Source of the DNA: an uncultured Candidatus Saccharibacteria bacterium
GTDB taxonomy: Bacteria; Patescibacteriota; Doudnabacteria; UBA920
Length of the DNA stretch: 56,876 bases
Assembly: GCA_964556325.1 (NCBI GenBank)
Contig: CAZKVS010000006.1
Span: forward strand, 1-56,876
Direction: 5' to 3'
Position 1 is the first letter of the stretch; each line of letters starts with the position of its first letter. The notes under the pieces are model-generated. The model was not told where the DNA came from. It saw only the letters and a program-made list of their open reading frames with translations, and searched no databases. Below are positions 9,292 through 52,690 of the stretch, piece after piece. Both the position numbers and the translations under genes were made by a program.

Positions 9292-9648
9292 TCACCTGCT
9301 GACCTTTCTAGATGAATACTTTACGCGGCGCAGACGTGCGCAATGATTCGTAAAATATTTGTCCAGGAAGACAAGATAACCTCAACCCTTCCGCACATTT
9401 ACGTGTACTTTTCTATATCCCAGGAGGATATATTTTAGAGAGATTATTGTTTAGTATTGCGGATGGTTTATTTTTGGCCTTGAGTGCAATTGCATGCAAG
9501 CTGTCCGAGAAAAGTAAGAGTGTAAAAGCCTTAAACTTTTACTTTGTTACTTTTCTCGGCAGGTATCTGTGTGTTCCCAACAGCGGGAACTTGCAGTGCG
9601 GCCAAAACCAATCAACCGCGACGCTTTAATCGGCGGCGCGATTTTTTT
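9292..9648 (+). ncRNA. long structured leader or stand-alone ~360-nt RNA (unknown class) ending in an intrinsic terminator
   Basis: An extended hairpin pairs 9505-9517 with 9547-9559 (13 bp perfect) and has an inner 7-bp helix (9522-9528/9536-9542). A terminator-like stem pairs CGCGACGC 9617-9624 with GCGGCGCG 9633-9640 (one A/G mismatch) and is followed by T7 at 9642-9648. No convincing ORF is present. Confidence 0.35.
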
Positions 9649-9677
9649 CAACTTCCAAACCTTTTACAAGGAGAATT

Positions 9678-10718
9678 ATGCTGTCAATGAAAAAATTCGT
9701 GACCGCGATGTTTGCTATCGCGGTTTTGTTATCAACAATGGCGACTTTTGCCTCAGCGCAAGCGACGGAAGAACAGGCGCAAGAACAAGTGCAGCGGCTC
9801 GACGACCATTTTGCTTCAAAGGCGGTGGTGCAACAGCAGTCGTTTGCGATTACGCAATCTGCCGCGGCCAAGGCAAAGATCATTATCACCGGCGGCCCCT
9901 CGGGGACTGTTGTCAACCAGGCATACGCTGCGACGTTTCCGAATCAAGCGCAGCCCTTATTGCTCTCGTTGGAAGGTGGAGTCGGTACGTGCCGTCTGCA
10001 CAACACCTATACCGGCGAAACCTGGTCGAATGTGACTATGCCCAGAGCGTTTGCTCCCACCTTGGACGAGTCAGGAGAAACACTTCTGATTGGCGGGTAC
10101 ATTACCGCCGACTGCGGAAACGGAGCGCAGACAGCTTCGCTGTTTGTTCATTTGTTCAACCGGTTCGGCATGATGGCTGTGTCTGAAGGGGATACGACCA
10201 GCGGTGCAACAGGTTCCTCGAAACGTTTTTATGCGGTGAGTTTCGTTGCAAGTCGCAAGTTTACGTGGACTGCTCCTGGTGGCTCTCCGTCGAGTGGTGT
10301 ATCGGACGAAATTTTCAACGTCTCGTTTCCCACTGGCGGGGTTCGCGATATTGAGACGACGTTCGGTCCGGCACCGGATCGGGGCGGCCATAAGTTTAGC
10401 ACTCGTTTGGCTTTTTATGCCATTGGGTCGTCTGCGCTGTCATTCTCCCGCGATCGAACCGGAATCACGCTTACCGCATCCGAGGAAGCTGATGTTATGG
10501 CCGGTATCCTGACCTTGCAAGTCAGGTACGCGCGTTCCATTCAAACTTTCAACCTGAACGTCCCCGGCGTAACAGCCGGAGAAAAACTTCGGGTTGACTT
10601 ACCCAACAACGCCGAAGCGGCCACCATTGTTGCGACTTACACCACCGACGAAGAATCGCCCTGCACCTGGGCGCGGAAGTTGCCCGCAATGCAACGCCCC
10701 TCCATGCCGGAGCGATAA
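9678..10718 (+). CDS. secreted hypothetical protein (signal peptide; no recognisable domain), possibly horizontally acquired
   Basis: 346 aa. AAGGAGA lies 5 nt upstream of the ATG and is the only strong SD seen in the window. The signal peptide is KKFVTAMFAIAVLLSTMATFASAQA. The region appears GC-rich, with several long spurious ORFs overlapping in other frames. Confidence 0.7.
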   Translation: MLSMKKFVTAMFAIAVLLSTMATFASAQATEEQAQEQVQRLDDHFASKAVVQQQSFAITQSAAAKAKIIITGGPSGTVVNQAYAATFPNQAQPLLLSLEGGVGTCRLHNTYTGETWSNVTMPRAFAPTLDESGETLLIGGYITADCGNGAQTASLFVHLFNRFGMMAVSEGDTTSGATGSSKRFYAVSFVASRKFTWTAPGGSPSSGVSDEIFNVSFPTGGVRDIETTFGPAPDRGGHKFSTRLAFYAIGSSALSFSRDRTGITLTASEEADVMAGILTLQVRYARSIQTFNLNVPGVTAGEKLRVDLPNNAEAATIVATYTTDEESPCTWARKLPAMQRPSMPER

Positions 10719-10914
10719 TTCGTCCCAACGATAACTCTCAATATTCCACCACCCTTACCCGGTGGTAAAAGCCCAGCACAAATAACACACTACTACAATT
10801 GTGTGACCTATCTGTTGCTGGGCTTTTAGGTTGCCTATTTTTAAAATATCGTCTGTAATCGTGATATAATATTACTAATTGGGAGAGAGTGTATTTTAAG
10901 AAACAAATTAGGCT

Positions 10915-11451
10915 ATGAAAAAACAATACATTTTTTTTGCTGTACTCATGGTCGTGCTAGTGCTTGTGGGGACGAAGTTGGTTATAGATTCTCGTAGTTC
11001 AGAACAAGCAGCGGAACCGGTCGTAGAACATCAAGAGCCTGTAAATACAGTTACCAACCAACCGCCGAAAGACCAAAACTCAGTTAAAAAAGGTATACGT
11101 CGGTTTGTGTTTGCTTCCGCGGATAAAACTATTACCGGTGATGGTTCTATAACCCTTAAAGACACACTTACTTCGGTTGGTTTGAGGCTTATTACAGCAC
11201 CCAAACCACCTACCGGTATGGTCTATGAGGCATACTTAGTTACGGGTACACAGCCTGCCGTGTTTATGGGTGAGTTAAAAGAAGTAACTACAAAAAGTCA
11301 AAAATACCTATGGGCGGGTCCGGGTTTGTTGGATTGGTACAAGGCAGACAAGGTTGTAGTAACCAAACGTAAGCCTGTTGATCCGCGACCGGGGCAAATT
11401 GTAGTTGAAGCCAAGATTAGTGTGGAAGAGTTTTTCACACAGCCTAAGTAG
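10915..11451 (+). CDS. hypothetical membrane-anchored protein
   Basis: 178-aa ORF with an N-terminal TM helix (IFFAVLMVVLVLVGTKLVI). It lies directly upstream of the second giant gene. Confidence 0.55.
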   Translation: MKKQYIFFAVLMVVLVLVGTKLVIDSRSSEQAAEPVVEHQEPVNTVTNQPPKDQNSVKKGIRRFVFASADKTITGDGSITLKDTLTSVGLRLITAPKPPTGMVYEAYLVTGTQPAVFMGELKEVTTKSQKYLWAGPGLLDWYKADKVVVTKRKPVDPRPGQIVVEAKISVEEFFTQPK

Positions 11452-11460
11452 TGAGTAAGT

Positions 11461-14400
11461 ATGGTTAAAAGGTTCTCGTTTTTGAATATATTGAGTGGTG
11501 TACTAACAAGCAAGGCAGGATTGTTTGTGGTGGCCTTTGTAGCGGCTATTTTCCTGGCTCAGGTTCCTGTGTTTGTCCACACTGTTCAAGCCGCGCCGGG
11601 AAGTCCTCAAAGTTTAACCTGCGGGGCGACTTTTAATGGCAGCAATGGAAGGTGGGACGTTACCGCAAGCTGGTCGTTTGTGCATAATCCAACGCCCTGG
11701 CCTTATGGTACAAATTATTTTTTGGGTATATCAGGACATGGGGATGGTACTATGACGGGTGTGGACGAATCAGGTACCGCCAGCTTTAGTTTTTTGGGTA
11801 GTGCTGGTCCGTTTACCGCTTCGATTACAAATTGGGAGGCACTAGAAGAAATTACCGCCGATTGTGGTGGTGGCACGCCTCCAACACCTCCGACAGTCAC
11901 TTTGAGTGCGTCTCCCACGTCGGGGGTGTATCCAACGTTTGCCGGTTTAAGTTGGAGCACTACAAACAACCCTACTAGTTGTACTGCAGGAGGGGATTGG
12001 TCAGGTAGTAAATCAATTTCCGGTGGAAGCGAGACTGTGGGATACCCTTCCGCGGGCCACCATGATTACACTATTTCTTGCACTAATGATGGAGGCACTG
12101 CCAATGCCAGCGCGAGTATAGATATTAGCGCGCCGGGCCCTGCGGTAACGTTGACCGCCACGCCAAATCCGGTTACGTATAATGCAACCACGACGCTTGG
12201 CTGGAGCTCGGATTACACCTCGGAGTGTGTTGCAACCCAAGGACCTGGTTTTTCTACCGGTTCAGGTTCGCCCACTACGGGGTCAGATACCTCTACGGCT
12301 TTAACTTCCGCTGCTACTTTTACCGTTTTTTGCGATGGTCCGCAAGGTTCGGTAAGCGACACCCAAGTGGTAAATGTGCAACCGCACTGTACGAGTAGTG
12401 CGGCTGCTACGCCAACTGTTTCTATCGCAGCCGGAACTCAATATGTGTACGCATACGGAGTAGTGAACGCAACTTCCGTATCGTTTCCTACCTGGGGTGA
12501 TGTAAACGCTCAAGACGACATTATTTGGTACGCCGGAACTAATATAGGCGGGGGAACATGGCGTGCGACGGTAAATTTAAATAGTCATAGCCCGGGTAAC
12601 CCTGAATATGGCAACATAAATACACATGTGTATATGAGCGGGTCTGGGTACACGAACACCTGGTGTGGTACGGCCAACTTTACACTTAATTCATCTCCGG
12701 TTGTTGCGCAAATATACACTCGTGTATCCGGTACAACTCCTTGGCTTAAGAGCGTAGTAGTTGCTCCCGGAACGCAGGTGGATTATATGTGGACTTCTGC
12801 CGGTGGCTCTTCATATTCTTCTACTTACACTGCTAATCCTTTAGCGACGTATTGTGGCAGTGTGCCTCCCACGGGTGGGTGGATTGCCAATAGTAGTTCG
12901 GGTACAAGTTTAAATAATACGACTCAAGCTTGTCAAAATGGTATTGTATTCACTCTCTTGTACTCCGTGAATGGCGGCGCGGCAACGGATAGCGTGACGG
13001 TTACAGTCAATAGTACCGGTGCTATTCCTGCAGGGTCTTTAACGCTGAGTCAAACGCCAAATTGTACCGTAACCCCACCCGCTACAACGTGTGACCCGAT
13101 TCCAACGGTGAATTGGATAACCACTAATACAGTATATTCTCAGGTTTTGGTGAGCGTAAATGGCGGGGCAGACTCACTCTTTAACGCGGGTTGTGCTGCG
13201 AGCGGCGGCCCACTTGATCGTACGGTGGCCTCGGGTGAAACGCATGCATTTAAGCTGTATGCGGCGCCTAACTGTTTTGATTCGCCGGGCGGCTCTTTAA
13301 CCGGTGATATTACCGTACTTTGGGACTCCGCAAACGGCGCCGTACCATCCGGTTGGACGTGTATTTCTTGTAATCCTGGAGATGCGTATTACCATTATTT
13401 CCTGAGAGGGGATGCTACGGCCGGCACAACCGGGGGGAGTGATACGGGCTCTCATACTTTGACTTACCAATCGGCAACTTCGGGGGCTACCACGTTGGCT
13501 CCGTCTGGTTCAAATGCTGCGGGCGGCTCTCACGCGCATTCTTGGCCAAATTTAGCTACGACAACGGACAGCATTGTTCCCGCGTACAAGCAATTGCAAC
13601 TAATCAAGCGAACCAATCCACCGTATATCCCGGCAAACGCCATAGCGTTGTTTGAGGCCTCTGTCCCGTCGGGCTGGACTCGGTATTCTAGCCTAGATGG
13701 GCTGTATCTGCGCGGAGGGGAGAATAACGCTACCGGTGGGAGTTCGACGCATGCGCATACCACCATTGCTAATGTGTCCGGTGGGCCGAGCGGTGGGAGT
13801 GCGGGCGGTAGTGGTAGTGGTAGAATTCCCGCAAGTAACTTCCATACGCATTCGCTTGATGCCACAGGTTTGAGCGCGAGCAATAATAGTCCGCCGTATG
13901 TGCAAGTGGTGTTTGGGAAAATTTCTGCAAACGGTCCGGCGCCGGCAGGTATGGTTGCTTTCTTTGATGGTAGTGTGCCCACTGGATGGTCTTGTGTTTC
14001 CTGCGCAGCCGGAGATGTGTATTATCAGCGACTATTGGTTGGGGCGGCAAACTTTGGTTCGACAGGTGGTGTGGCCACACATGATCATGGCGGTGGTTTG
14101 GTTATTACGAGCGGCGGTCCGAGTATGACCACCTCTACGGGTTCGACTTCTGGTAGCAGTCCGGCAAGTAGCAGTCATGCGCATGCTGTAACGTATACTG
14201 TGGGCTCTCAAAGCAGCTGGCCGGCTTATAAGACAATAAAGCTTGGACGATACACTGCGTTTACATTGCTCGACACCAAGAGCGTAACTGGAGTGACTGC
14301 TGCGTCTCCGGCTATTTTGATTTCCTCTAACAAAGATGTAGTTGAGGTGGATGGTGAAGATGTGCCTTTTGTCTATAATGATTCCGTGGCCACCGCGAAT

Positions 14401-18606: not shown

Positions 18607-18675
18607 CAACGTTTTTCGCTGCCGCAACGCTCAGCGTTGCGATAGTCGCGCTAAGCGCGATTGCGAAAAACGTTG
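18607..18675. terminator. GC-rich three-way palindrome between convergent gatB and miaA (probable bidirectional terminator)
   Basis: The outer 13-bp stem pairs CAACGTTTTTCGC (18607-18619) with GCGAAAAACGTTG (18663-18675). It encloses two hairpins, GCAACGC/GCGTTGC (18624-18640) and TCGCGC/GCGCGA (18646-18660). Confidence 0.55.
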
Positions 18676-24243: not shown

Positions 24244-24350
24244 ATTGACAAAAATGACAAAATTTAAAAAAATGACAAAATTTGCACAGAGAATTCCGAC
24301 ATGCTAATTTTTGTCAATTTTGTTCAATTTTATTTAATTCTGTTCAATTA
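24244..24350. repeat. word hairpin, family TTGACAAAA/TTTTGTCAA (upstream of proS)
   Basis: cattgacaaaaatgacaaaat opposes atttttgtcaattttgttcaa. A related copy lies at 54252-54340. Confidence 0.6.
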
Positions 24351-27264: not shown

Positions 27265-27273
27265 AATATAACA

Positions 27274-27397
27274 AGCACCAAATTACAAAATACAAATAAC
27301 AAGTAAATCCCAATATATAAATTCAAAATATAAAAATAGGATACGGGCTTTGGAAATTTGGAACTTGTTTGGTACTTGTATTTTGTAATTTGGTGCT
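27274..27397. repeat. 22-bp perfect inverted repeat hairpin (mreB-mreC spacer)
   Basis: AGCACCAAATTACAAAATACAA (27274-27295) is the exact reverse complement of TTGTATTTTGTAATTTGGTGCT (27376-27397). Confidence 0.85.
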
Positions 27398-27411
27398 TTA
27401 TTTAAAATGAT

Positions 27412-32500: not shown

Positions 32501-32568
32501 TAGGGCTAAGGGCTAAGTAAAATACAGTACATTTTACACCCTTAACCTTACATCCTTAGCCCTTAGCA
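32501..32568. repeat. word hairpin, family AGGGCTAAGGGCTAAG (greA-lysS spacer)
   Basis: TAGGGCTAAGGGCTAAG (32501-32517) opposes CCTTAGCCCTTAGC (32555-32568). The same words form a 16-bp inverted repeat inside dnaE (44622-44679). Confidence 0.8.
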
Positions 32569-35317: not shown

Positions 35318-35425
35318 AGATACCAATATACTAATGGTACTAATGAAACGAATAAATACTAATTCTTTCTTAGCACGCATTAGTAAACATTAGTATCATT
35401 CGTACAGATTAGTATATTGGTATCT
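35318..35425. repeat. empty copy of the AGATACCAATATAC-terminated hairpin element (MITE-like)
   Basis: AGATACCAATATACTAAT (35318-35335) is the exact reverse complement of ATTAGTATATTGGTATCT (35408-35425). The termini and an internal 17-mer (CATTAGTATCATTCGTA) are identical to the element carrying the GxxExxY gene at 38099-38570. Confidence 0.75.
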
Positions 35426-39730: not shown

Positions 39731-41476
39731 TTATTGTTTGGTTTGAATTTCCGTCTGTAGTTTTTGGACAAAGTCGGCTATAGACATACTACCTAAGTCT
39801 GCGTCGCCTCGGCCTCGTACGCTTACCATGTGCGCTTCTATTTCTTTGTCGCCAACTACAGCCATGTAGGGCACCTTGGTCTTTGCCGCTTCGCGAATTT
39901 TTTTACCAACCGACTCACTGCGTTCGTCTACTTCAATACGAGCATCGGGCAGTATTTGTTCTATTTCTTGCTTGACTTGTTGAGCGTACGCAATATGTTT
40001 GTCGCTGATAGGTAAGATAGTAACCTGCATGGGTGAAAGCCAAGTAGGAAATGCCCCAGCATAATGCTCAATGAGCACTGATAGGAAACGTTCAATAGAG
40101 CCCATAATTGCTGCGTGAACCATAACGGGAGTTTCTTTTTGGCCTTCGCTGTTCGTGTATTCAAGACCAAACCGACCCGGCATATTCATGTCTACTTGTA
40201 TGGTTGCTACTTGGTGGTCTCGCCCAATCGCATCTTTACCCATAAAGTCTAATTTCGGTCCGTAAAACGCAGCCTCGCCCACGCCGTCAAATGTTTCTAC
40301 GTGTTTCTCTGCGGCAAGTTCTCTTAGCATATTTTCCGCTTTCCCCCATAACTCTGGATCACCTTGGTATTTTTCCATATGCGCTGGGTCGTGCATTGAT
40401 AGGCGAACTCTTAAGTTAAATCCAAAGGTGTTATAGAATTTTTGTACTATTTCCCACGCATGGGATAGCTCCTCTTTGACTTGATCAAAGCGAGCGAAGA
40501 CATGGGCATCATCTTGGGTAATGGCGCGTACTCGAGATAAACCTGCTAGCTCTCCCGATTGCTCATCGCGGTACACCATGGTGGTGTTCGCATATCGTTG
40601 AGGCATCTCTCGGTAGCTCCAGGCTTTGCGTCCAAATATTTGTGTATGATGCGGACAGTTCATAGGCTTCATGGCAAATTCATGCCCTTCTCGTGTCTTA
40701 ATTCGCATGAGCTCGTCGGCAAATTTGCTCCAATGACCAGACGTCTCGTACAAATCTTTTTTGGTAATGTGAGGGATTTCCACCTTCATGTAGCCTGCCG
40801 CTTTACGGAGTGACCACAAATAGTCGTCTAAAAGATTTCGAACAAGAGTACCTTTGGGGGTCCAGAGAGGCAAGCCGGCGCCGACCAACTCAGAGAAAAC
40901 AAACAGATCCAACTGTGGCCCGAGGATTTTATGGTCACGTTTTTTTGCTTCCTCTATCATCTGCTCGTATTGCTCGAGTTCATCCTTTGAATTAAAGGCT
41001 AAGCCGTAGATGCGAGTGAGCATTTTATTTTTTTCATCACCGCGCCAGTATGCCCCTGCCACTTTGGCAAGCTTGAAGCTCCCAGGGTCAATGTTCTTCA
41101 TGTTTTCTGCGTGTCCGCCACGGCAGAGGTCCCAGTAATCGCCGGATTTGTAGAAGCTGACTTTTTCACCGTCCTTGGTAAACTCTTCTATGAGCTCGTG
41201 CTTATACTCGTTTCCAGGGTATTCTGCCTTTGCCTCCTCAGCCGTGAGCTCTGAGCGCTCAAAACCATCCCAGGTGGGCAAAATTTTGCGCATCTGCTTT
41301 TGTATCTGGGGTAAGTCTTCGTCTGAAATAGGTGTACTAAACTCAAAGTCGAAATAGAAACCATTGTCTATGGCTGGGCCAATAGTCCGTTTTGCGTCCG
41401 GATACAGTTGCATAACTGCTGCGGCAAGTAAGTGGGCGAGTGAGTGACGTTTGTTTTGCAATTGTTCGTCGTTCAT
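39731..41476 (-). CDS. thrS: threonyl-tRNA synthetase (lacks the N-terminal TGS domain)
   Basis: It begins at the editing-domain motif RHSLAHLLAAAV and has class II motifs and an anticodon-binding domain. The start is taken at ATG 41476 (MNDEQLQ...) rather than the track's 41569. Confidence 0.9.
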   Translation of the reverse strand: MNDEQLQNKRHSLAHLLAAAVMQLYPDAKRTIGPAIDNGFYFDFEFSTPISDEDLPQIQKQMRKILPTWDGFERSELTAEEAKAEYPGNEYKHELIEEFTKDGEKVSFYKSGDYWDLCRGGHAENMKNIDPGSFKLAKVAGAYWRGDEKNKMLTRIYGLAFNSKDELEQYEQMIEEAKKRDHKILGPQLDLFVFSELVGAGLPLWTPKGTLVRNLLDDYLWSLRKAAGYMKVEIPHITKKDLYETSGHWSKFADELMRIKTREGHEFAMKPMNCPHHTQIFGRKAWSYREMPQRYANTTMVYRDEQSGELAGLSRVRAITQDDAHVFARFDQVKEELSHAWEIVQKFYNTFGFNLRVRLSMHDPAHMEKYQGDPELWGKAENMLRELAAEKHVETFDGVGEAAFYGPKLDFMGKDAIGRDHQVATIQVDMNMPGRFGLEYTNSEGQKETPVMVHAAIMGSIERFLSVLIEHYAGAFPTWLSPMQVTILPISDKHIAYAQQVKQEIEQILPDARIEVDERSESVGKKIREAAKTKVPYMAVVGDKEIEAHMVSVRGRGDADLGSMSIADFVQKLQTEIQTKQ

Positions 41477-41845
41477 ATGATTAGTAATCAGTAAATAGTA
41501 AGTAGTAAAAAGTAATAAGTAAAGATTGATAATATTCTTGCTTTGCCATTGCGAGTGCATCCGAAGCAATCTCTCATTTGCATAGTAGATTGCTACCTGA
41601 TGCCCATGGCATTGCCGTGGCGGGCGGGCGTCACAGAGCTTCTCTTCGAGTCTGAGCGATGAGGCCCAGGACTCAGAGTCGAACGACCTCGCAATGACAG
41701 TGTATGTTTGGCTGATTTGCCCCAGGGCAAAACCAGCCTATCTAGTCAGGCTTCTGCGGTACTTTTCTTGCGGTAGTAATCGATTCGACATATGCAGTCC
41801 CATTACTACAATACTTCTAAGTATCGAAGTAATGTTAATATATTA

Positions 41846-41901
41846 TTTTAAAATAAAAACCCAGATTACAAATATGAATACATTCATATCTATAATCTGG
41901 G
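41846..41901 (-). terminator. rho-independent terminator on the minus strand (end of ncRNA unit B)
   Basis: CCCAGATTA (41860-41868) pairs with TAATCTGGG (41893-41901), with an inner palindrome ATATGAAT..ATTCATAT. On the minus strand it is followed by TTTTTATTTTAAA. There is no T-run on the plus side. Confidence 0.65.
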
Positions 41902-42353
41902 GTCTATCCTGGTGGATGACGGTTCCGTCCCAGCGTGCTTTGGCACAAAGCACGTCCTGAGCGAAGTCGAAGGGTCGTCTTTCAAGCCAAAGCCTTTTAA
42001 AATATTAACTTGTTTCAGGCTCCGCGGGTTGGTAGTCCACATTAACACCTGAAAGGTACTACATTAATTATACCTAGGCTAAAATAAATGCGCAAATAGT
42101 AATGCCAGGCGCATTTGGAGTGTGGTCACCAAAAGATTACGCCTGGCGGGTTGGTTGAGACAATGGTGTCTCCTCCTTCGTGTGGAATATAAACATTCTT
42201 TTTGGCCTTCATCAGGTTGAGATTCGGTTTTGGATACGCCGACATCAGCTCATTGCGCCAAAGCTATGACGTTTAGACAGCGGGCTGTCTGAGGTTTGTG
42301 CCGGGCCCAGGGTCCGAACCGTCTTTAATAGCGGCCTACTCGGAGATGTTATT
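41846..42353 (-). ncRNA. candidate structured ncRNA unit B (~0.5 kb, unknown class)
   Basis: It is bounded by the TTGCTG-17-TATAAT promoter (42388-42360) and the terminator at 41901-41846. Internal helices include 42092-42099/42140-42147 (GCCAGGCG/CGCCTGGC), 42275-42280/42285-42290 and 41934-41952 (GTGCTTTG/CAAAGCAC). There is no plausible ORF. Strand choice is tentative. Confidence 0.35.
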
Positions 42354-42359
42354 TAGCTG

Positions 42360-42388
42360 ATTATAGCCGGTTAGGCAGCTTGCAGCAA
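42360..42388 (-). promoter_or_regulatory. minus-strand promoter TTGCTG-17-TATAAT
   Basis: The reverse complement of 42383-42388 is TTGCTG and of 42360-42365 is TATAAT, with a 17-nt spacer. It sits directly after the U-tract of the upstream terminator-like hairpin. Confidence 0.45.
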
Positions 42389-42454
42389 ATAAAAAAGGAC
42401 CCACGACGTGTACAGCGCGAAAAGGTTGGCCTTTCAAAGAGCAGACGTCGTGGG
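42386..42454 (-). terminator. terminator-like hairpin plus U-tract on the minus strand (end of ncRNA unit A)
   Basis: CCCACGACGT (42400-42409) pairs with ACGTCGTGGG (42445-42454), 10 bp perfect, with an inner AAAGG/CCTTT hairpin. On the minus strand it is followed by TCCTTTTTTATTT. Confidence 0.45.
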
Positions 42455-43599
42455 CATAAAAAAGGAGGGAGGTAACTTGTAAAACTCAAGGCCAGGAGTG
42501 ACACAGTGGTGTCCATTCCTGCAAAATTTACTGGGCCACAAAACTGACCTTGAGTTTGCCGATTGTCCCGACTAAGAGTCGGGACAGAAATCTGAGACGC
42601 TCAGGAGCGTGAGCCAAACTTTGTTCGTGCTCAGTGATGCCGCTCCGTGGACTGGAGGAAGTGAGTCCACTTATTAAGCGCCTCAGCGCGCAACGCTATT
42701 TTTAGCCAGCCGGTGGCGTTGCGCGGGGCAAAAGAAATCCCTTATAAATTTTGCGAACTTGGAAAGTTGCCAACGCGAGCCAGAGGCTCGTGCGAACTGT
42801 CCGGGCCCGGCTGATGGGCTCGCGTTGGCAACAGCGGTCTTGGGTGCCTCACTCACCGTCGACCGAGACGAATATCTATCGTGGTAATCCAGGTGTGCTG
42901 GAGGCCCGCTTGCTTTTCTACCATTTGCGGGTTGCGTGTGGATTACCACGATCTTGTGCGCAACTTTACATTGTCGCGCAAGGGGTACCACAGTGACTGC
43001 GGCTAGGTTGGCAAAGCTAGCCAAGCATCCGCACCAGCATTCTAGGCACAGTCACTGTGATCTTGTTGGGAGCGCGTTTGTGCGCTCAACCAAGTCCTGG
43101 AGCAGGACTACGGAGCAGCGCGGGCAGCTCCTCCGTAGTCCTGTGCGATGAGGGCTGAGTCTATCGCAAAGAGGTTTCATGGTAGCTGGGTTTGACCCCA
43201 GCAAAGCTTTTGGAAGGAGGTTTTACAAACTTCCAGCTACCATGAACTTGGTGTAGTGAGCGGCGCAAGGTCGCGCTCGAACCACGGAGTGGTTTTGTAG
43301 GAAAAAACCATAACCGCCCGGGCGATCGTAGCTCAGCATGTAATGCTAGAAGCGATGGTTTTTCCCTACAAACTTATAAAATTTGAGGAAACTAAAATTC
43401 GCAAAATTTGCGTTATGTTTCCTCGTGAAAATTTTTAAGCCAGTGACAACTACGCGGGGCGTTGTGGTGAGCTAGTTTGACCGGCGGGGAAGCCAGTCGG
43501 TTCATCTCAAGCGGTTCAAGTGGCGGCTCTATTGGGCCGCCTCAAGTGGTCGCAGGTGGGATTAACCTAGCGGTTTGTGTAGTTGTCACCGGACTATCT
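42386..43599 (-). ncRNA. candidate giant structured ncRNA unit A (~1.2 kb, unknown class)
   Basis: A chain of at least 12 long helices (8-16 bp, mostly perfect) fills 42482-43592; coordinates are in the findings. The TTGACA-18-TACACT promoter at 43635-43606 lies upstream. Single mismatches in three helices become G-U pairs only on the minus strand. The sequence is GC-rich relative to other spacers. Only noise-like ORFs are present. Confidence 0.4.
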
Positions 43600-43605
43600 G
43601 CGCAC

Positions 43606-43635
43606 AGTGTACGCCTGGTGAATTGTCTTTGTCAA
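43606..43635 (-). promoter_or_regulatory. minus-strand promoter TTGACA-18-TACACT
   Basis: The reverse complement of 43630-43635 is TTGACA and of 43606-43611 is TACACT, with an 18-nt spacer. It lies just downstream of the dnaE terminator. Confidence 0.45.
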
Positions 43636-43646
43636 ATAAAAGCAAA

Positions 43647-43683
43647 ATCGACTCCCGTAGTTTGTTCGGGGGTCGATTTTTTC
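43647..43683. terminator. bidirectional terminator hairpin 3' of dnaE
   Basis: ATCGACTCCCG (43647-43657) pairs with CGGGGGTCGAT (43667-43677). The plus side is followed by TTTTTTC and the minus side by TTTTGCTTTTATTT. T43653/G43671 is a wobble on the plus strand and a C/A mismatch on the minus strand. Confidence 0.7.
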
Positions 43684-43724
43684 TGACTTTCCTGTACACT
43701 TTTCACTGTTCACTTTCCACTATC

Positions 43725-46700
43725 TCATGCCCCTGTGACCTGAGCAACTTCGGGGATTTTTTTAAGCTCCAGGAAGAGGTCTTCGGAAATGCGGACCATG
43801 GTTTTGGTTTTTATAGTTTGGACCGAGTTGCCGGAGCCGAAAGTGAGAAATACCTGTGCATTACCGGGACGAGCCTCGAGTACTTCTTTTATTTTATGCA
43901 GTGATTGGTCGCCGGCCATGTGCTTCATACGAATAACTACTTGTTTATCTTTTTCTATTTCACCGAGTGCGAGGTGGTAGGTGTCGTCGTTGGGAAGCTC
44001 GATTACCGTGTCTGCAATTATGGTGAGCTCGCCATCTCGCTCGTTGAGTCTGCCGCTTATTTGGAGGACTTTATCTACGACCATAAGATGGACTACCTGG
44101 GGCATGAGTTTGGGAAACACAAGTACCTCTAAGTGACCGGTTGGGTCTTCCAAGGTGAAGAATGCCATGGGCTCATTTTTCTTGGTCATGGTACGTTTGA
44201 GTTTGGCTACCAGTCCGCCTACGGTGACGTTTTGACCGTCTAGCTCTTCTGTAAGTTCACGAATGGGTGCAACGGACTTAAGCACTGTTTTATACTGCTC
44301 CAATGGGTGGCTAGATACATACATGCCCAAGTGTTCTTTTTCCCAAATAAGTTTTTCTTCGGGGGAGGCAGGGGAGGCGTCTTTGAGTTTGAGTTTGCCC
44401 AATGGTAACGTGTTGCCAAACAGTGAGTTTGGCGCGTCCAGCTCATGTTTTGCTTTGCCGCGCATGTAGTCCAGCACGAGCTCAGTGTTGGCTATGAGTT
44501 TTCCGCGTTCTTCATAGCGGTCGAGTGCACCGCTTTTGACCAGTGCTTCCCAAGACCGTTTATTAAAGTTTTTAACGTAACATTCACCAACAAAGTCATC
44601 TAGCGTGGGAAACGCTAAATCAGGGCTAAGGGCTAAGGGGGTAGGGTCTAGTTCTGAATTTAACTTAGCCCTTAGCCCTACACGCCTATCCCTTCCTTGT
44701 TTTATTGCTTCAATTACATCACTACCTAAGTTTTTAATTGCGCCCAAGCCAAATCGGATGGTGGTATCGTTCACTACTGTAAAGTCGTCCATGCTTTCAT
44801 TTACATCGGGTGGCAGTACCGCAATGCCCATGGCCTTGCATTCTTCCACTGCGGCGTAAATTTTTGTTTCATCGCCGCTTTCCGCGGTCATGAGCGCAGC
44901 CATGAACTCAACTGTGTAGTTTGCCTTCATGTAGGCGGTTTGGTATGCAACGACGCTATAACTAGCAGAGTGACCTTTGTTAAAACCATAGGCAGCGAAC
45001 GGTTCAATCCAGCTCCACACTTGCTCACCTTTTTCTTTCGTCCAGCCTTGCACCTTCATACAGCCTTCTATGAACTTTGTCCGTTGCTTTGCCATTTCTT
45101 CCGGGATCTTTTTACCCACGGCTTTACGGAATTTATCTAGTTCTTCCCAGGTGTAACCGGCTAGGTCGTGTGCCATTTGCAGGAGGTCATCTTGGTAGAC
45201 CAAAATACCGTAACTTCGGGCAAGTATTTTTTCTAGTTCCGGATCAAGATACGTAATAAGGTCTGGATTGTGTTTGCGCGCAATAAAGTCCGGGATAAAC
45301 TGCAGTGGTCCTGGGCGGTACAACGCAATCATGGCCATGATGTCGAAAATGGTTTCCGGCTTCAGCTCTTTGAGATACCGAGTCATGCCGGACGAGCCCA
45401 ACTGAAACACGCCAAAGGTGTGCCCCGCAGAAAGAAGAGTATAGGTTTTCGGGTCTTCGGCTGGAAGATTATAAATATCTACTTTAGTCTGATGTCGTTT
45501 TTCCACAAGTTTCAGTGCCCCCACCAAAATAGAGAGGTTGCGAATTCCAAGTAGGTCAAGTTTGATAACCCCTATGGCGTAGGAAGAAGCACCTACATCC
45601 ACGGAATACATATCGTACTGGGTTATAGTGCGTTCTCCGTCCGGTTCCTTTTGGAGCGGTAAATAGTCTGTAAGTTCGGTGGGCGTAATCACAATACCCG
45701 CTGCATGTATTGATGCGTGCCTGCAGCTACCCTCAATCTTTTTTACAATGTCAATAATTTTTTTGGTTTCTGGGTCGGTTTGGTAGGCGGCCTTGAGCTC
45801 GGGGTTCAGTCCCATAGCTGCGTCTATGGTCATGTCAAAACCTTGTTTGCCGATGGGTACCATTTTAGCTAGGCGATCACATTTGCCATAGGGGATGCCC
45901 ATGGCTCTGCCTACATCCCGCATGGCAGCGCGTGCCTTCATAGTTCCGAAGGTAATAATTTGTGCTACTTTGTCGTGGCCATAGCGCTCGGTCATCCAGG
46001 CTATAGTCGCGTCGCGGTGAGTATCGGAAATGTCCAAGTCTATATCGGGAGGTGATGGGCGATGTTTGGTTAGGAAACGCTCAAAGGGAATAATAAATTC
46101 TAGGGGGTCTACGTTTACAATTTGCAACACATGTCCTACGAGACTTCCGGCAGCACTCCCACGAGTATTTGTAATGGCTCCGAGTGAGTGGGCTCCGTGG
46201 ACAATATCCGCAACCATAATAAAGTAGGGCGCGTATCCTTTACTGCAAATAATATCCAGTTCGTACTCAAGGCGCTCTTGAGCTTCAGAGGGGATTTCGC
46301 CCTTGTATTTTTTAAGGGCGTGTTCGTGTACAAGAGTGCGTAAGTAGCTCTCGTTTGTTTCGCCTTCAGGAATTTCTACTTTTGCAAACCATCGTTGGTC
46401 TAAGAGAATCTCCAGTGTGCATTGATCAGCTACCCAAAGAGTGTTTTCTACGGCGTCGGGAAGGTCTGCAAAGAGCGCCTTCATTTCTTCCGGGCTTTTA
46501 AGTGATAGGTCATGACTGCGCATGTCCAAACGGTTCGGGTCTTCTACTGTTCGGCCTGTGCCAATGCAGACAAGTACATCCTGGGCTTCTGCATCGTCCG
46601 CGTGTATATAGTGGCTATCTGCGGTTGCCACTAATCTGAGATTGTGTTTACGTGCAATACCCACCAGTTTTTGTAGTCGCTCCTCGAGTTGTTTTCCTTC

Positions 46701-47252
46701 TCCATGGGTGCGGTCACGCTCAGTCCGTTGAATTTCGATTAAAAAGTTTTCAGGTCCAAAAATGTCTAGGTATTGCTGCAATACTTCTTCGGCCCGCTGC
46801 TCGTTGCCTGATGCTATGGCCTTTGGAAGTTCGCCACCCGGGCAGCCAGAGAGCGCAATAAGTCCTTCGCTGTGTGCCTTGAGAAACTCTTTGTCTACGC
46901 GGGGTTTGTAATAAAAACCTCGGGTGTGCGCCTCTGTAGTGAGTAGAATTAAGTTTTTGTAACCGGCATCATTTTTAGCGATGAGCGTTAAATGGAAATA
47001 GTCGCTGTCAATTTTTCCTTCCTTGTCTTCCATTCCGCGGGGCGCGATATATGCTTCCATCCCAATGAGTGCTTTTACACCTGCCTGTTTGCAGTTGTAG
47101 TAAAATTCTACTGCGCCGTACATGACGCCATGGTCGGTCAATGCAATGGCTGGCATTTCAAGTTCTTTGGTACGTTCAACAAGCCCCTCAATGCGAGAGA
47201 GTCCATCTAAAAGTGAATAGTGACTATGTGTGTGGAGATGAACGAAAGACAT
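43725..47252 (-). CDS. dnaE: DNA polymerase III alpha subunit
   Basis: PHP domain start MSFVHLHTHSHYSLLDG, polymerase core (GLLKMDFLG-like VIKLDLLGIRNL) and a C-terminal OB fold. The start is taken at ATG 47252. It contains an in-frame palindromic insertion at 44622-44679. Confidence 0.95.
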   Translation of the reverse strand: MSFVHLHTHSHYSLLDGLSRIEGLVERTKELEMPAIALTDHGVMYGAVEFYYNCKQAGVKALIGMEAYIAPRGMEDKEGKIDSDYFHLTLIAKNDAGYKNLILLTTEAHTRGFYYKPRVDKEFLKAHSEGLIALSGCPGGELPKAIASGNEQRAEEVLQQYLDIFGPENFLIEIQRTERDRTHGEGKQLEERLQKLVGIARKHNLRLVATADSHYIHADDAEAQDVLVCIGTGRTVEDPNRLDMRSHDLSLKSPEEMKALFADLPDAVENTLWVADQCTLEILLDQRWFAKVEIPEGETNESYLRTLVHEHALKKYKGEIPSEAQERLEYELDIICSKGYAPYFIMVADIVHGAHSLGAITNTRGSAAGSLVGHVLQIVNVDPLEFIIPFERFLTKHRPSPPDIDLDISDTHRDATIAWMTERYGHDKVAQIITFGTMKARAAMRDVGRAMGIPYGKCDRLAKMVPIGKQGFDMTIDAAMGLNPELKAAYQTDPETKKIIDIVKKIEGSCRHASIHAAGIVITPTELTDYLPLQKEPDGERTITQYDMYSVDVGASSYAIGVIKLDLLGIRNLSILVGALKLVEKRHQTKVDIYNLPAEDPKTYTLLSAGHTFGVFQLGSSGMTRYLKELKPETIFDIMAMIALYRPGPLQFIPDFIARKHNPDLITYLDPELEKILARSYGILVYQDDLLQMAHDLAGYTWEELDKFRKAVGKKIPEEMAKQRTKFIEGCMKVQGWTKEKGEQVWSWIEPFAAYGFNKGHSASYSVVAYQTAYMKANYTVEFMAALMTAESGDETKIYAAVEECKAMGIAVLPPDVNESMDDFTVVNDTTIRFGLGAIKNLGSDVIEAIKQGRDRRVGLRAKLNSELDPTPLALSPDLAFPTLDDFVGECYVKNFNKRSWEALVKSGALDRYEERGKLIANTELVLDYMRGKAKHELDAPNSLFGNTLPLGKLKLKDASPASPEEKLIWEKEHLGMYVSSHPLEQYKTVLKSVAPIRELTEELDGQNVTVGGLVAKLKRTMTKKNEPMAFFTLEDPTGHLEVLVFPKLMPQVVHLMVVDKVLQISGRLNERDGELTIIADTVIELPNDDTYHLALGEIEKDKQVVIRMKHMAGDQSLHKIKEVLEARPGNAQVFLTFGSGNSVQTIKTKTMVRISEDLFLELKKIPEVAQVTGA
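44622..44679. repeat. 16-bp perfect inverted repeat of the AGGGCTAAGGGCTAAG word family, in frame inside dnaE
   Basis: AGGGCTAAGGGCTAAG (44622-44637) is the exact reverse complement of CTTAGCCCTTAGCCCT (44664-44679). It encodes ...GLRAKLNSELDPTPLALSPDL... in dnaE. Confidence 0.85.
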
Positions 47253-47267
47253 AGGCAAGATACAAAT

Positions 47268-47331
47268 GAGAAATGAGCCTTGAGCCGTGAATAAATTGCC
47301 ATTTTGGCTCATTACTCAAGTCTCATTTCTC
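47268..47331. repeat. word hairpin, family GAGAAATGAG (dnaE 5' region)
   Basis: GAGAAATGAGCCTTGAG (47268-47284) opposes CTCAAGTCTCATTTCTC (47315-47331), 16 of 17 complementary. Confidence 0.7.
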
Positions 47332-52616: not shown

Positions 52617-52690
52617 AATTACCAATTTCTAATTTCCAATGAAATATCCAATTTCTAAAGGCTATTTCATTACATTAGAAATTGGTAATT
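52617..52690. repeat. 17-bp perfect inverted repeat, family AATTACCAATTTCTAAT (prmC-prfA spacer)
   Basis: AATTACCAATTTCTAAT (52617-52633) is the exact reverse complement of ATTAGAAATTGGTAATT (52674-52690). Confidence 0.85.

Follow-up and report, generated by a model that had tools for sequence, protein, structure and literature searches.

Large structured RNAs of bacteria such as OLE, GOLLD and ROOL are built from intricate multi-way junctions and pseudoknots and show deep covariation over many genera. Staphylococcus aureus RNAIII and CsrB/RsmZ are multi-hairpin RNAs that act as regulators or protein sponges; RNAIII loops pair with Shine-Dalgarno regions, and CsrB carries a GGA motif in many of its hairpin loops. 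The T-box comprises a specifier, a purine string and an antiterminator (helix A1, a bulge and helix A2) that competes with a terminator (reviewed in PMC7583486). In all known T-boxes a UGGN at the 5' edge of the 7-nt bulge is fixed and base-pairs to the 3'-NCCA of the tRNA, and short forms of Stem I are known in translational T-boxes (PMC7583486). Here we describe the spacer between dnaE and thrS in 56,876 nt of DNA from an uncultured Candidatus Saccharibacteria bacterium (contig CAZKVS010000006.1; this whole stretch is the window), in which an initial annotation had seen a candidate giant noncoding RNA locus made of two promoter-to-terminator units. Our analysis favours, with a probability of roughly 55%, a composite locus in which an autonomous, modular structured RNA gene of ~1.2 kb, probably trans-acting, is followed by a T-box-like attenuator of thrS.

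The hairpin-chain RNA candidate

Both genes lie on the minus strand (thrS, 39731-41476; dnaE, 43725-47312; both confirmed by Pfam), with the thrS start and the dnaE stop where the initial annotation had placed them, and the spacer between them (41477-43724) is 2,248 nt long. It holds no credible open reading frame (ORF): the longest encodes 113 aa, none reaches the Pfam cut-off or has a match better than E=0.02, and hairpin-sized indel blocks between relatives interrupt every ORF of the chain region. As judged by Pfam and by the indels among relatives, there is neither the family similarity nor the frame-keeping conservation of a protein gene or pseudogene. GC content is 0.50-0.57 in the spacer versus 0.44-0.48 in the flanks, so the earlier description of an ORF-free, GC-enriched stretch was accurate.

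The spacer is strongly structured. An inverted-repeat scan recovered essentially all of the helices listed before, although the 16-bp helix lies at 42766-81/42817-32 and not, as had been given, with its second arm at 42827-42. Perfect stems of at least 10 bp occur at 4.9 per kb in the spacer region versus 0.86 per kb in the whole window. Minimum free energy (MFE) z-scores, calculated in 300-nt windows against dinucleotide shuffles, range over 41450-43700 from -2.6 to -9.0 on the minus strand and from -0.4 to -6.7 on the plus strand, and are about -1.9 to +1.6 in thrS and the adjoining part of dnaE; a mildly structured stretch lies deeper in dnaE (44450-44899, z -2 to -3). The interval 41477-42400 taken alone has z = -7.7.

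The locus also lies outside every Rfam family, as had been anticipated. Rfam 15 gave 0 matches at the gathering threshold over the whole window, and at E<10 only six sub-threshold, chance-level matches within 41400-43800, namely four microRNA-precursor hairpin models, the rimP leader (E 6.3) and the bglG/LicT cis-regulatory element (E 4.8). No covariance-model match was obtained to OLE, GOLLD, ROOL, HEARO, raiA, RNase P, 6S, SRP, tmRNA, group I or II introns or rRNA; ARAGORN found no tRNA and no tmRNA in the window, and inspection by eye for integron attC-like ends, DnaA boxes and parS gave no consistent motif. The spacer is best read as a row of separate minus-strand transcription units rather than one giant RNA.

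The largest of these, the chain unit (43635-42386), would comprise a sigma-70-type promoter, a transcript of ~20 mostly independent hairpins and an intrinsic terminator. The promoter, proposed in the initial annotation, was found by our promoter scan (Table 1), and the window, L096, L093 and L095 agree fully in its hexamers and in the start region GCGCAGAUAGUC, with variable neighbouring bases (loci fetched from relatives are numbered L001-L099; WIN is the window's own sequence). L099, in which the first ~120 nt of the chain are present, has a slightly diverged promoter copy (TTGACAAG ... GTACACTGTGCCCAG). An alignment of five chain sequences (A3) shows identity in the promoter, over the initial ~25 nt of the RNA and in the terminator tail UUUUUAUUUGC; TTTTTATTTGC, the tail, is unchanged throughout the five, and the hairpin ahead of it is remodelled in L093 and L095. 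Upstream, the dnaE terminator is kept in L093 and L095 with both arms changed. The first of the two units drawn in the initial annotation thus survives, its promoter, 5' end and terminator tail being invariant in four independent relatives and its helices compensated. U-tracts follow the terminators on the minus strand only, and the minus-strand promoter and both terminators (hairpin then U-run) are conserved parts; from these signals we infer that the minus strand is the one transcribed.

The chain was found only in those 90%-identity protein clusters that hold the window's own thrS and dnaE, that is, in a tight genome cluster (dnaE at least 90% identical). Its carriers are L096 (= L097, L098), L093 (= L094 over the common stretch), L095 and L086, and 85 loci have no counterpart of the 1.2 kb chain. 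Both BLASTN and an nhmmer profile of the chain matched only the close cluster among the fetched loci, to which the matches of a covariance model of the 5' domain, run against 27 fetched loci, were likewise confined. Exact-pattern scans (two patterns in Joint Genome Institute metagenomes; viral contigs) returned 0 matches to the chain.

Within the cluster the sequence changes slowly. When the window is compared with L093, L095 and L086, four-fold sites of thrS and dnaE have an identity of just 0.36-0.48, near saturation; the chain's paired columns are 0.80-0.85 identical and its unpaired columns 0.61-0.69. Because column identity exceeds four-fold-site identity, the chain unit appears to be either constrained or recently moved between lineages. 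RNAalifold on A3 predicted 284 pairs, with 93.9% of cells paired, and 29 of these pairs changed on both sides, versus 15.3+-2.6 in shuffles (0/500 reach 29) and 2-10 in slid-partner controls. Compensations checked by hand include GUGGAC/GUCCAC to CCGGAC/GUCCGG and, in hairpin 42832-42766, A-U to G-C and C-G to U-A. Within the 5' domain, 98% pairing and a U-A to C-G swap are seen in helix 2, and 4/7 pairs of inner helix 4 changed on both sides. Hairpin 43424-43385 is identical in the window, L096, L093 and L095 but for one L093 loop base. The conservation and compensation on which the initial annotation made its proposal depend are present, but they are confined to close relatives. These patterns suggest that the stems, along with some loops and linkers, are preserved by selection.

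Individual hairpins behave as modules, lost, replaced or swapped from strain to strain, probably through recombination. L093 lacks hairpin 43373-43292 as a clean block, and L095 and L096 carry it. Hairpin 43143-43103 has a 3' arm reverse-complementary to the flanking CAGGACU; it is not present in L095 and L086, where the sequence reads CACAGGACUUGG. At 42952-42878, a hairpin of equal size but different sequence (an inverted repeat in L086) takes its place in L095 and L086, and L093 has none; hairpin 42979-42958 is present only in the window and L096. The closest relative, L096, otherwise 91-95% identical, is without ~155 nt (about 42725-42570), and its hairpin 42557-42482 has an L095-type interior. 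Given such losses and gains between strains and its restriction to one tight cluster, the chain is no deeply conserved family of giant noncoding RNA.

Two further observations concern this region. Contigs of close relatives from independent metagenome assemblies repeatedly break off in or right beside the spacer, mostly within the chain (L081 end, 9617; L099 end, 7774; L094 end; L086 start; L097 and L098 starts), which fits structural polymorphism of the region within populations. Moreover, the L093 ThrRS (10535-12286) is 72% identical to the window's, the DnaE C-terminus 91% and the intervening chain about 80%, a mismatch that implies a recombination breakpoint within or close to the spacer.

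The hairpins may fall into 5', central and 3' domains, set apart by three predicted long-range helices. These helices would close the RNA ends, the central domain and the 3' domain, and are unproven because they never vary; the central-domain helix (RNAalifold helix 13) is 95% paired in five sequences and essentially invariant, so covariation lends it no support. Another long-range pairing, 43409-43395/42760-42746, was rejected: it is complementary in the window, but a change in L093 weakens it with no compensation.

How does the chain compare with known systems? With OLE, GOLLD and ROOL (PMC12286853) it shares a length above 0.5 kb, a noncoding and heavily structured sequence and its own predicted promoter and terminator. 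All three are in Rfam, whereas the chain is unmatched there. Unlike them, the chain is mostly long simple hairpins, is confined to one tight genome cluster and varies between strains by whole hairpins; it belongs to no described family and differs from all three in build and in evolutionary behaviour. With RNAIII and CsrB/RsmZ it shares the predicted arrangement of independent hairpins on one transcript, but it is not homologous to them and is two to three times longer. A sponge of the CsrB/RsmZ type was set aside, as the apical loops have no repeated motif such as GGA. A few conserved, exposed, C-rich segments of the chain (CCUCC/UCCC-like) could, as RNAIII loops do, base-pair to Shine-Dalgarno regions. 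Four unpaired positions of the alignment have CCUCC in common, three of them in four sequences each and the fourth in all five, and one of the four lies within the invariant ACCUCCCUCCU, yet CCUCC enrichment is weak (5 versus 2.1 expected, P about 0.06) and only suggestive. Our guess is that the chain works in trans, as a stable structured RNA such as a scaffold or sponge, with its helices and exposed CCUCC segments as the working parts.

Repetitive extragenic palindromic (REP) sequences, bacterial interspersed mosaic elements (BIMEs), hairpins like those of miniature inverted-repeat transposable elements (MITEs) and template-switch hairpins (PMC8794818) resemble the chain in that near-perfect inverted repeats cluster between genes and vary between strains, and one chain hairpin is edged by a short direct repeat. 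Membership of a REP/BIME or MITE family was rejected, every chain hairpin being unique: the hairpins are mutually unlike, and none has a second copy in the window's other 54.6 kb or in 91 other loci (the search covered about 57 kb of this genome). The chain differs further from such repeats in having a conserved promoter and terminator and in evolving more slowly than synonymous sites.

The thrS leader and its neighbours

The second unit of the initial annotation was misread: its last ~210 nt, including the strong terminator at 41901 (which, with its U-tract, our scan also found), make up an attenuator of thrS with its own promoter. The promoter proposed earlier for the second unit (42388-42360) is plausible, but it was not picked by the scan, and the better leader promoter at 42094-42066 had been overlooked; most relatives have a -10-like box at the matching place upstream of Stem I.

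By its thrS and dnaE the window falls within Patescibacteria, close to Candidatus Doudnabacteria; an exact look-up of both proteins gave no record. The dnaE-thrS gene order is widespread in this group, with spacers of 525 nt to 5.7 kb, and all that spacers of more distant relatives have in common is one block of ~150-200 nt (~42060-41850 in the window), which directly precedes and includes the strong terminator upstream of thrS. This leader lies upstream of thrS in about 20 genomes; besides the window, T-box-like leaders precede thrS in L001, L002, L003, L005, L006, L011, L014, L015, L018, L027, L028, L043, L045, L054, L082, L083, L085, L086, L093, L095 and L096. Invariant across the 21 aligned leaders are ACC, GGGACGGAA and CCC..G. 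The specifier ACC (Thr) is found in 21/21 thrS leaders, followed by A in 20 and by G in 1. Stem I, about 45-50 nt, has a base helix of 6-7 bp, a GA-type internal loop, a helix of 3-4 bp and a YUACCAAC cap that places the specifier in or beside the terminal loop. It is followed by UAAAAAG, a variable hairpin, GAA, the string CUGGG-ACGGAAYC-GUC ... GAC-CCCAG and the long terminator.

The bulged antiterminator consists of A1 (CUGGG/CCCAG) and A2 (GUC/GAC), and CCCAG, which forms the 3' strand of A1, also begins the terminator 5' arm, so that terminator and antiterminator are mutually exclusive. A1 is 99% and A2 95% paired, with two-sided changes, and all departures in A1 but one are G.U. Stem I base and A1/A2 together are 90% paired, with 8/15 pairs changed on both sides (5/7 in the Stem I base helix). 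Two-sided changes were also seen in 13/20 of the predicted leader pairs, chiefly those of the terminator stem.

These features closely parallel the T-box (RF00230), in particular its short-Stem-I, glyQS-like forms: a leader of an aminoacyl-tRNA synthetase gene, a cognate codon (ACC) followed by a purine in Stem I, A1 and A2 around a bulge of 7-8 nt, an antiterminator 3' strand that doubles as the terminator 5' arm and, as judged by eye, a GA-type internal loop at the foot of Stem I and a Stem-III-like hairpin with the purine string AAAAG ahead of it and GAA behind it. Judged only by eye, conserved sequences have the form of the K-turn (G(N)UGA opposite GA) and of the Stem III purine string, 5'-RRRxG ... 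AA-3' (UAAAAAG ahead of the hairpin that precedes CUGGG, GAA behind it). The leader differs in that its bulge reads A-CGGA-AYC instead of UGGN-ACC, so that only GGA could pair with U73-C74-C75 of the tRNA end and C faces A76; in that Stem I is short, has no distal platform to stack on the tRNA elbow and holds the specifier in or beside its terminal loop; and in that it is unmatched by the Rfam model and belongs to a Patescibacteria (candidate phyla radiation, CPR) lineage. At the Rfam gathering score, RF00230 was unmatched in the window and in 11 loci. Because Stem I is very short, the bulge is A-CGGA and RF00230 gives no score, we do not file the leader as a canonical T-box, but its parts suggest that it works like one. 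The initial annotation's exclusion of a T-box by eye was therefore wrong in substance, although the Rfam model misses the leader too. A tRNA-Thr gene, whose discriminator base the N of UGGN should complement in a T-box, was found neither in the window nor among the 99 loci, and our full-text literature search returned no paper linking T-boxes with Patescibacteria.

In the mechanism we envisage, the short Stem I would present the threonine codon ACC to the tRNA-Thr anticodon, and the bulged antiterminator would compete with the terminator (41901-41860). Uncharged tRNA-Thr would stabilise the antiterminator, letting transcription run into thrS.

Between attenuator and thrS start, the window has an additional hairpin (41544-41699) with imperfect closing arms of 21 nt, which is absent from L093, L095 and L086. 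Low-complexity short-period repeats abut the thrS start codon, where a clear Shine-Dalgarno sequence would be expected, both in the window (41478-41530, AGTAA/TTACT-type) and in relatives (L005 5930-5960, GATTTAG x5; L001 5975-6000). The short middle unit, between chain and leader, is common to L096 and L093 at about 80-91% identity, and in L095 and L086 it is replaced by other sequence that includes an ORF of 42 aa. A small Gly/Pro/Gln-rich ORF is found in the spacers of L086 (1215-1495, 42 aa), L095 and L001 (5305-5600), preceded by a conserved hairpin (CUUCUCUCUAUGAGAGCC...CACAGCGGGAAGUUUUU); the window has neither.

Table 1. Positions of features in and around the dnaE-thrS spacer of the window
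Feature	Position	Strand	Description or basis
dnaE intrinsic terminator	43636..43684	minus	stem 43680-43667/43657-43644, then U-run; inverted repeat
Chain promoter, TTGACA-N18-TACACT	43606..43635	minus	promoter scan, 10/12 matches
Hairpin-chain RNA candidate	42386..43603	minus	~1.2 kb here, 1.04-1.16 kb in relatives; roughly 20 hairpins; MFE -513 kcal/mol
5' domain	43440..43592	minus	closing stem of 13-14 bp enclosing 2-3 inner hairpins; inverted repeat
Hairpin GAGGAAAC...GUUUCCUC	43385..43424	minus	stem and loop nearly invariant
Hairpin module, 19-bp stem	43292..43373	minus	inverted repeat; presence varies by strain
Hairpin module, 13-17 bp stem	43103..43143	minus	direct repeat CAGGACU at both edges; presence varies by strain
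Predicted central domain	42755..43097	minus	long-range helix GGACUUGG (43097-43090)/CCAAGUUC (42762-42755); RNAalifold helix 13
Hairpin module, 14-bp stem	42878..42952	minus	inverted repeat
Invariant unpaired ACCUCCCUCCU	42463..42473	minus	anti-Shine-Dalgarno-like; identical in all five sequences
Chain terminator	42386..42454	minus	stem 42454-42445/42409-42400, then UCCUUUUUUAUUUGC; inverted repeat
Short middle unit	42100..42388	minus	~250 nt of structured sequence behind a possible promoter, TTGCTG-17-TATAAT (42388-42360)
thrS-leader promoter, TTGCGC-17-TATAAT	42066..42094	minus	read from sequence
T-box-like thrS leader	41846..42058	minus	21 aligned leaders
Leader specifier ACC	42033-42031	minus	in short Stem I
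T-box-like sequence CUGGGACGGAACCGUC	41934-41919	minus	thrS leader
thrS-leader terminator and U-tract	41901-41860	minus	promoter/terminator scan and inverted repeat
thrS 5' untranslated region	41477..41845	minus	extra ~155-nt hairpin 41544-41699; inverted repeat, z -4.9 to -7.3
Helices recovered by the scan, part 1	42400-09/42445-54, 42482-95/42544-57, 42564-73/42577-86, 42687-96/42716-25		inverted repeats
Helices recovered by the scan, part 2	42878-91/42939-52, 42989-43006/43042-59, 43103-19/43127-43, 43176-89/43233-46		inverted repeats
Helices recovered by the scan, part 3	43294-311/43355-72, 43440-53/43579-92, 41860-79/41882-901		inverted repeats

Long inverted repeats are not restricted to this spacer. 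Perfect ones with stems of 12-23 bp and loops of 29-80 nt are found in many other spacers of the window (27273-27398, 35318-35425, 52617-52690, 9505-9559, 10766-10828, 18607-18675 and 24244-24318); they are mostly AT-rich, consist of short-period words such as AATTACCAAT, and have a geometry atypical for terminators. The word AGGGCTAAGGGCTAAG forms an inverted repeat of 13-16 bp both in the dnaE coding sequence (44622-44679) and in the spacer 32502-32567, 12 kb apart.

The dnaE-thrS slot in sister lineages

The synteny that the initial annotation suggested checking holds insofar as the gene order is widespread and the chain recurs in the close cluster, but the structured blocks of sister lineages are unrelated to it in sequence. 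L083/L084 and L085, whose dnaE is 83-84% identical to the window's, have a spacer of 2.2 kb that is unrelated to the window's. Compared with each other, L083 9466-11430 and L085 9535-11480 are 82.5% identical, and the four-fold sites of dnaE are 0.476 identical; paired columns of this spacer are 0.908 identical and unpaired columns 0.732. It shows 22 compensated pairs versus 0-2 in slid controls, although a two-sequence fold leans to its own structure; its z-scores are -3 to -5.6, and its promoter (TTGACAAA...GTACACT) is similar to that of the chain. The first 3 kb of the L082 spacer (9472-12471) have z mostly between -4 and -9.7, with one 300-nt window at -1.4; minus-strand ORFs in this structured stretch (10415-10852, 11727-12194 and 12271-12408) are probably spurious. 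In L082 and L087, protein genes, including a PaaX-like ORF, lie between the structured part and thrS. The slot thus appears, in several sub-lineages, to hold long, structured, constrained and noncoding sequences that are mutually dissimilar.

A wider reading, which we advance tentatively and consider on balance doubtful, is that the slot is, in this Doudnabacteria-like clade, a conserved position for long structured RNAs of fast turnover. Each sub-lineage would have its own promoter-to-terminator RNA of 1-3 kb, dissimilar from the others by sequence and by covariance model and under purifying selection with compensatory changes, evolving module by module next to a class of T-box that reads the tRNA 3' end with ACGGA.

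Weighing the alternatives

Several observations count against the composite locus as we interpret it. Only five chain sequences were available, from one narrow and visibly mosaic clade, and recent recombination among them could inflate the apparent conservation. Whole hairpins, as well as the ~155-nt block in the closest relative, may be missing, which implies that much of the chain RNA is dispensable. Many stems are long and perfect (10-20 bp), resembling DNA palindromes or young hairpins more than they do helices found in old structured RNAs; the long-range helices are without any variation. The apical loops have no common motif, and no k-mer is enriched among the unpaired bases; that the loops are C-rich and G-poor, considered as a sign of Shine-Dalgarno targeting, is no evidence, the same loop composition being given by shuffles of the same composition. 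Base-pair chemistry singles out no RNA strand, since the 198 pairs predicted on both strands include 25 G.U and 23 A.C when read on the minus strand. The strand argument from wobble pairs made in the initial annotation is accordingly without statistical support; isolated mismatches inside long stems on the minus strand do number 5 G.U and 0 A.C, but they are few, partly shared by descent and not independent, and wobble pairs are weak evidence for the strand. As to the leader, its bulge is A-C-G-G-A-A in all 21 sequences, never starting with UGGN, and RF00230 gave no match at E<10 even on short slices of the window and of L015, one slice being of 281 nt.

Much of this would also be expected of the main rival explanation, a hot spot at the DNA level, in which template switching or slippage makes and perfects inverted repeats that are shuffled between strains, with any transcript being incidental. 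A single template switch is known to produce hairpins together with compensatory changes (PMC8794818), and this would account for the long perfect stems, for the symmetric counts of G.U and A.C, and for hairpin 43143-43103, edged by a direct repeat of 7 nt and with a 3' arm that is the reverse complement of its flank. Strains that are 95% identical overall differ by whole hairpins, metagenome contigs repeatedly end within the chain, and other spacers of this genome hold long inverted repeats too. However, identity is far above the four-fold level, loops and linkers included (hairpin 43424-43385, ACAAGUUACCUCCCUCCU), the promoter and the terminator tail are invariant, the terminators function on one strand only, and the isolated stem mismatches lean to G.U on that same strand. 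A purely mutational process would also leave unexplained why a unit with the same boundaries is found in every cluster member that spans the slot. We therefore regard such a hot spot as unlikely, while taking it more seriously than any other rival.

Considerably less probable, in our view, is a role in cis, with the chain serving as a long insulator or processed leader between dnaE and the thrS attenuator, or as a source of RNase-resistant ends, and having no role of its own. The chain does have a terminator on one side and the thrS leader on the other, both genes sharing its strand, and related lineages also keep a long structured stretch in the slot. Yet it has a conserved promoter and terminator of its own, with one or two more promoters before thrS; more distant relatives manage with a spacer of 525-850 nt that holds little beyond the thrS leader; and in L082 and L087 protein genes separate the structured part from thrS.

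The idea of a decayed gene or mobile-element remnant (a MITE/REP pile-up, prophage or plasmid fragment) is largely refuted: the slot does take foreign genes (the PaaX-like and other ORFs in L082 and L087, the small ORFs in L086, L095 and L001), but no spacer ORF reaches the Pfam cut-off, no tRNA, Rfam intron or other mobile-element RNA was found, BLAST of the chain against 50,697 phage and 72,556 plasmid records gave no match, the hairpins are unalike and single-copy in the sequence searched, and conservation above neutral sites is the opposite of the decay that the initial annotation had named as an alternative.

The composite of a structured RNA gene and a T-box-like attenuator is thus the interpretation we prefer. 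CPR genomes are ~1 Mb with little spare DNA, and the chain evolves more slowly than synonymous sites, which makes it unlikely that a unit of 1.2 kb is filler. Our literature searches returned nothing on large structured RNAs in Patescibacteria. If transcribed, the chain would be a new large bacterial RNA of an unusual, openly modular build, and its natural strain variants, with hairpins present, absent or replaced, would provide a ready deletion series. The unrelated constrained regions in sister slots suggest a class of rapidly replaced long RNAs that Rfam, BLAST and covariance models would routinely miss; should the wider reading of the slot be true, position would be conserved without sequence, as for eukaryotic long noncoding RNAs, in a bacterium with a tiny genome. 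The thrS leader, for its part, would extend T-box-like regulation to a CPR lineage, and its ACGGA bulge, which breaks the rule of a UGGN start, would bear on how T-boxes sense aminoacylation and suggests that current models under-detect them.

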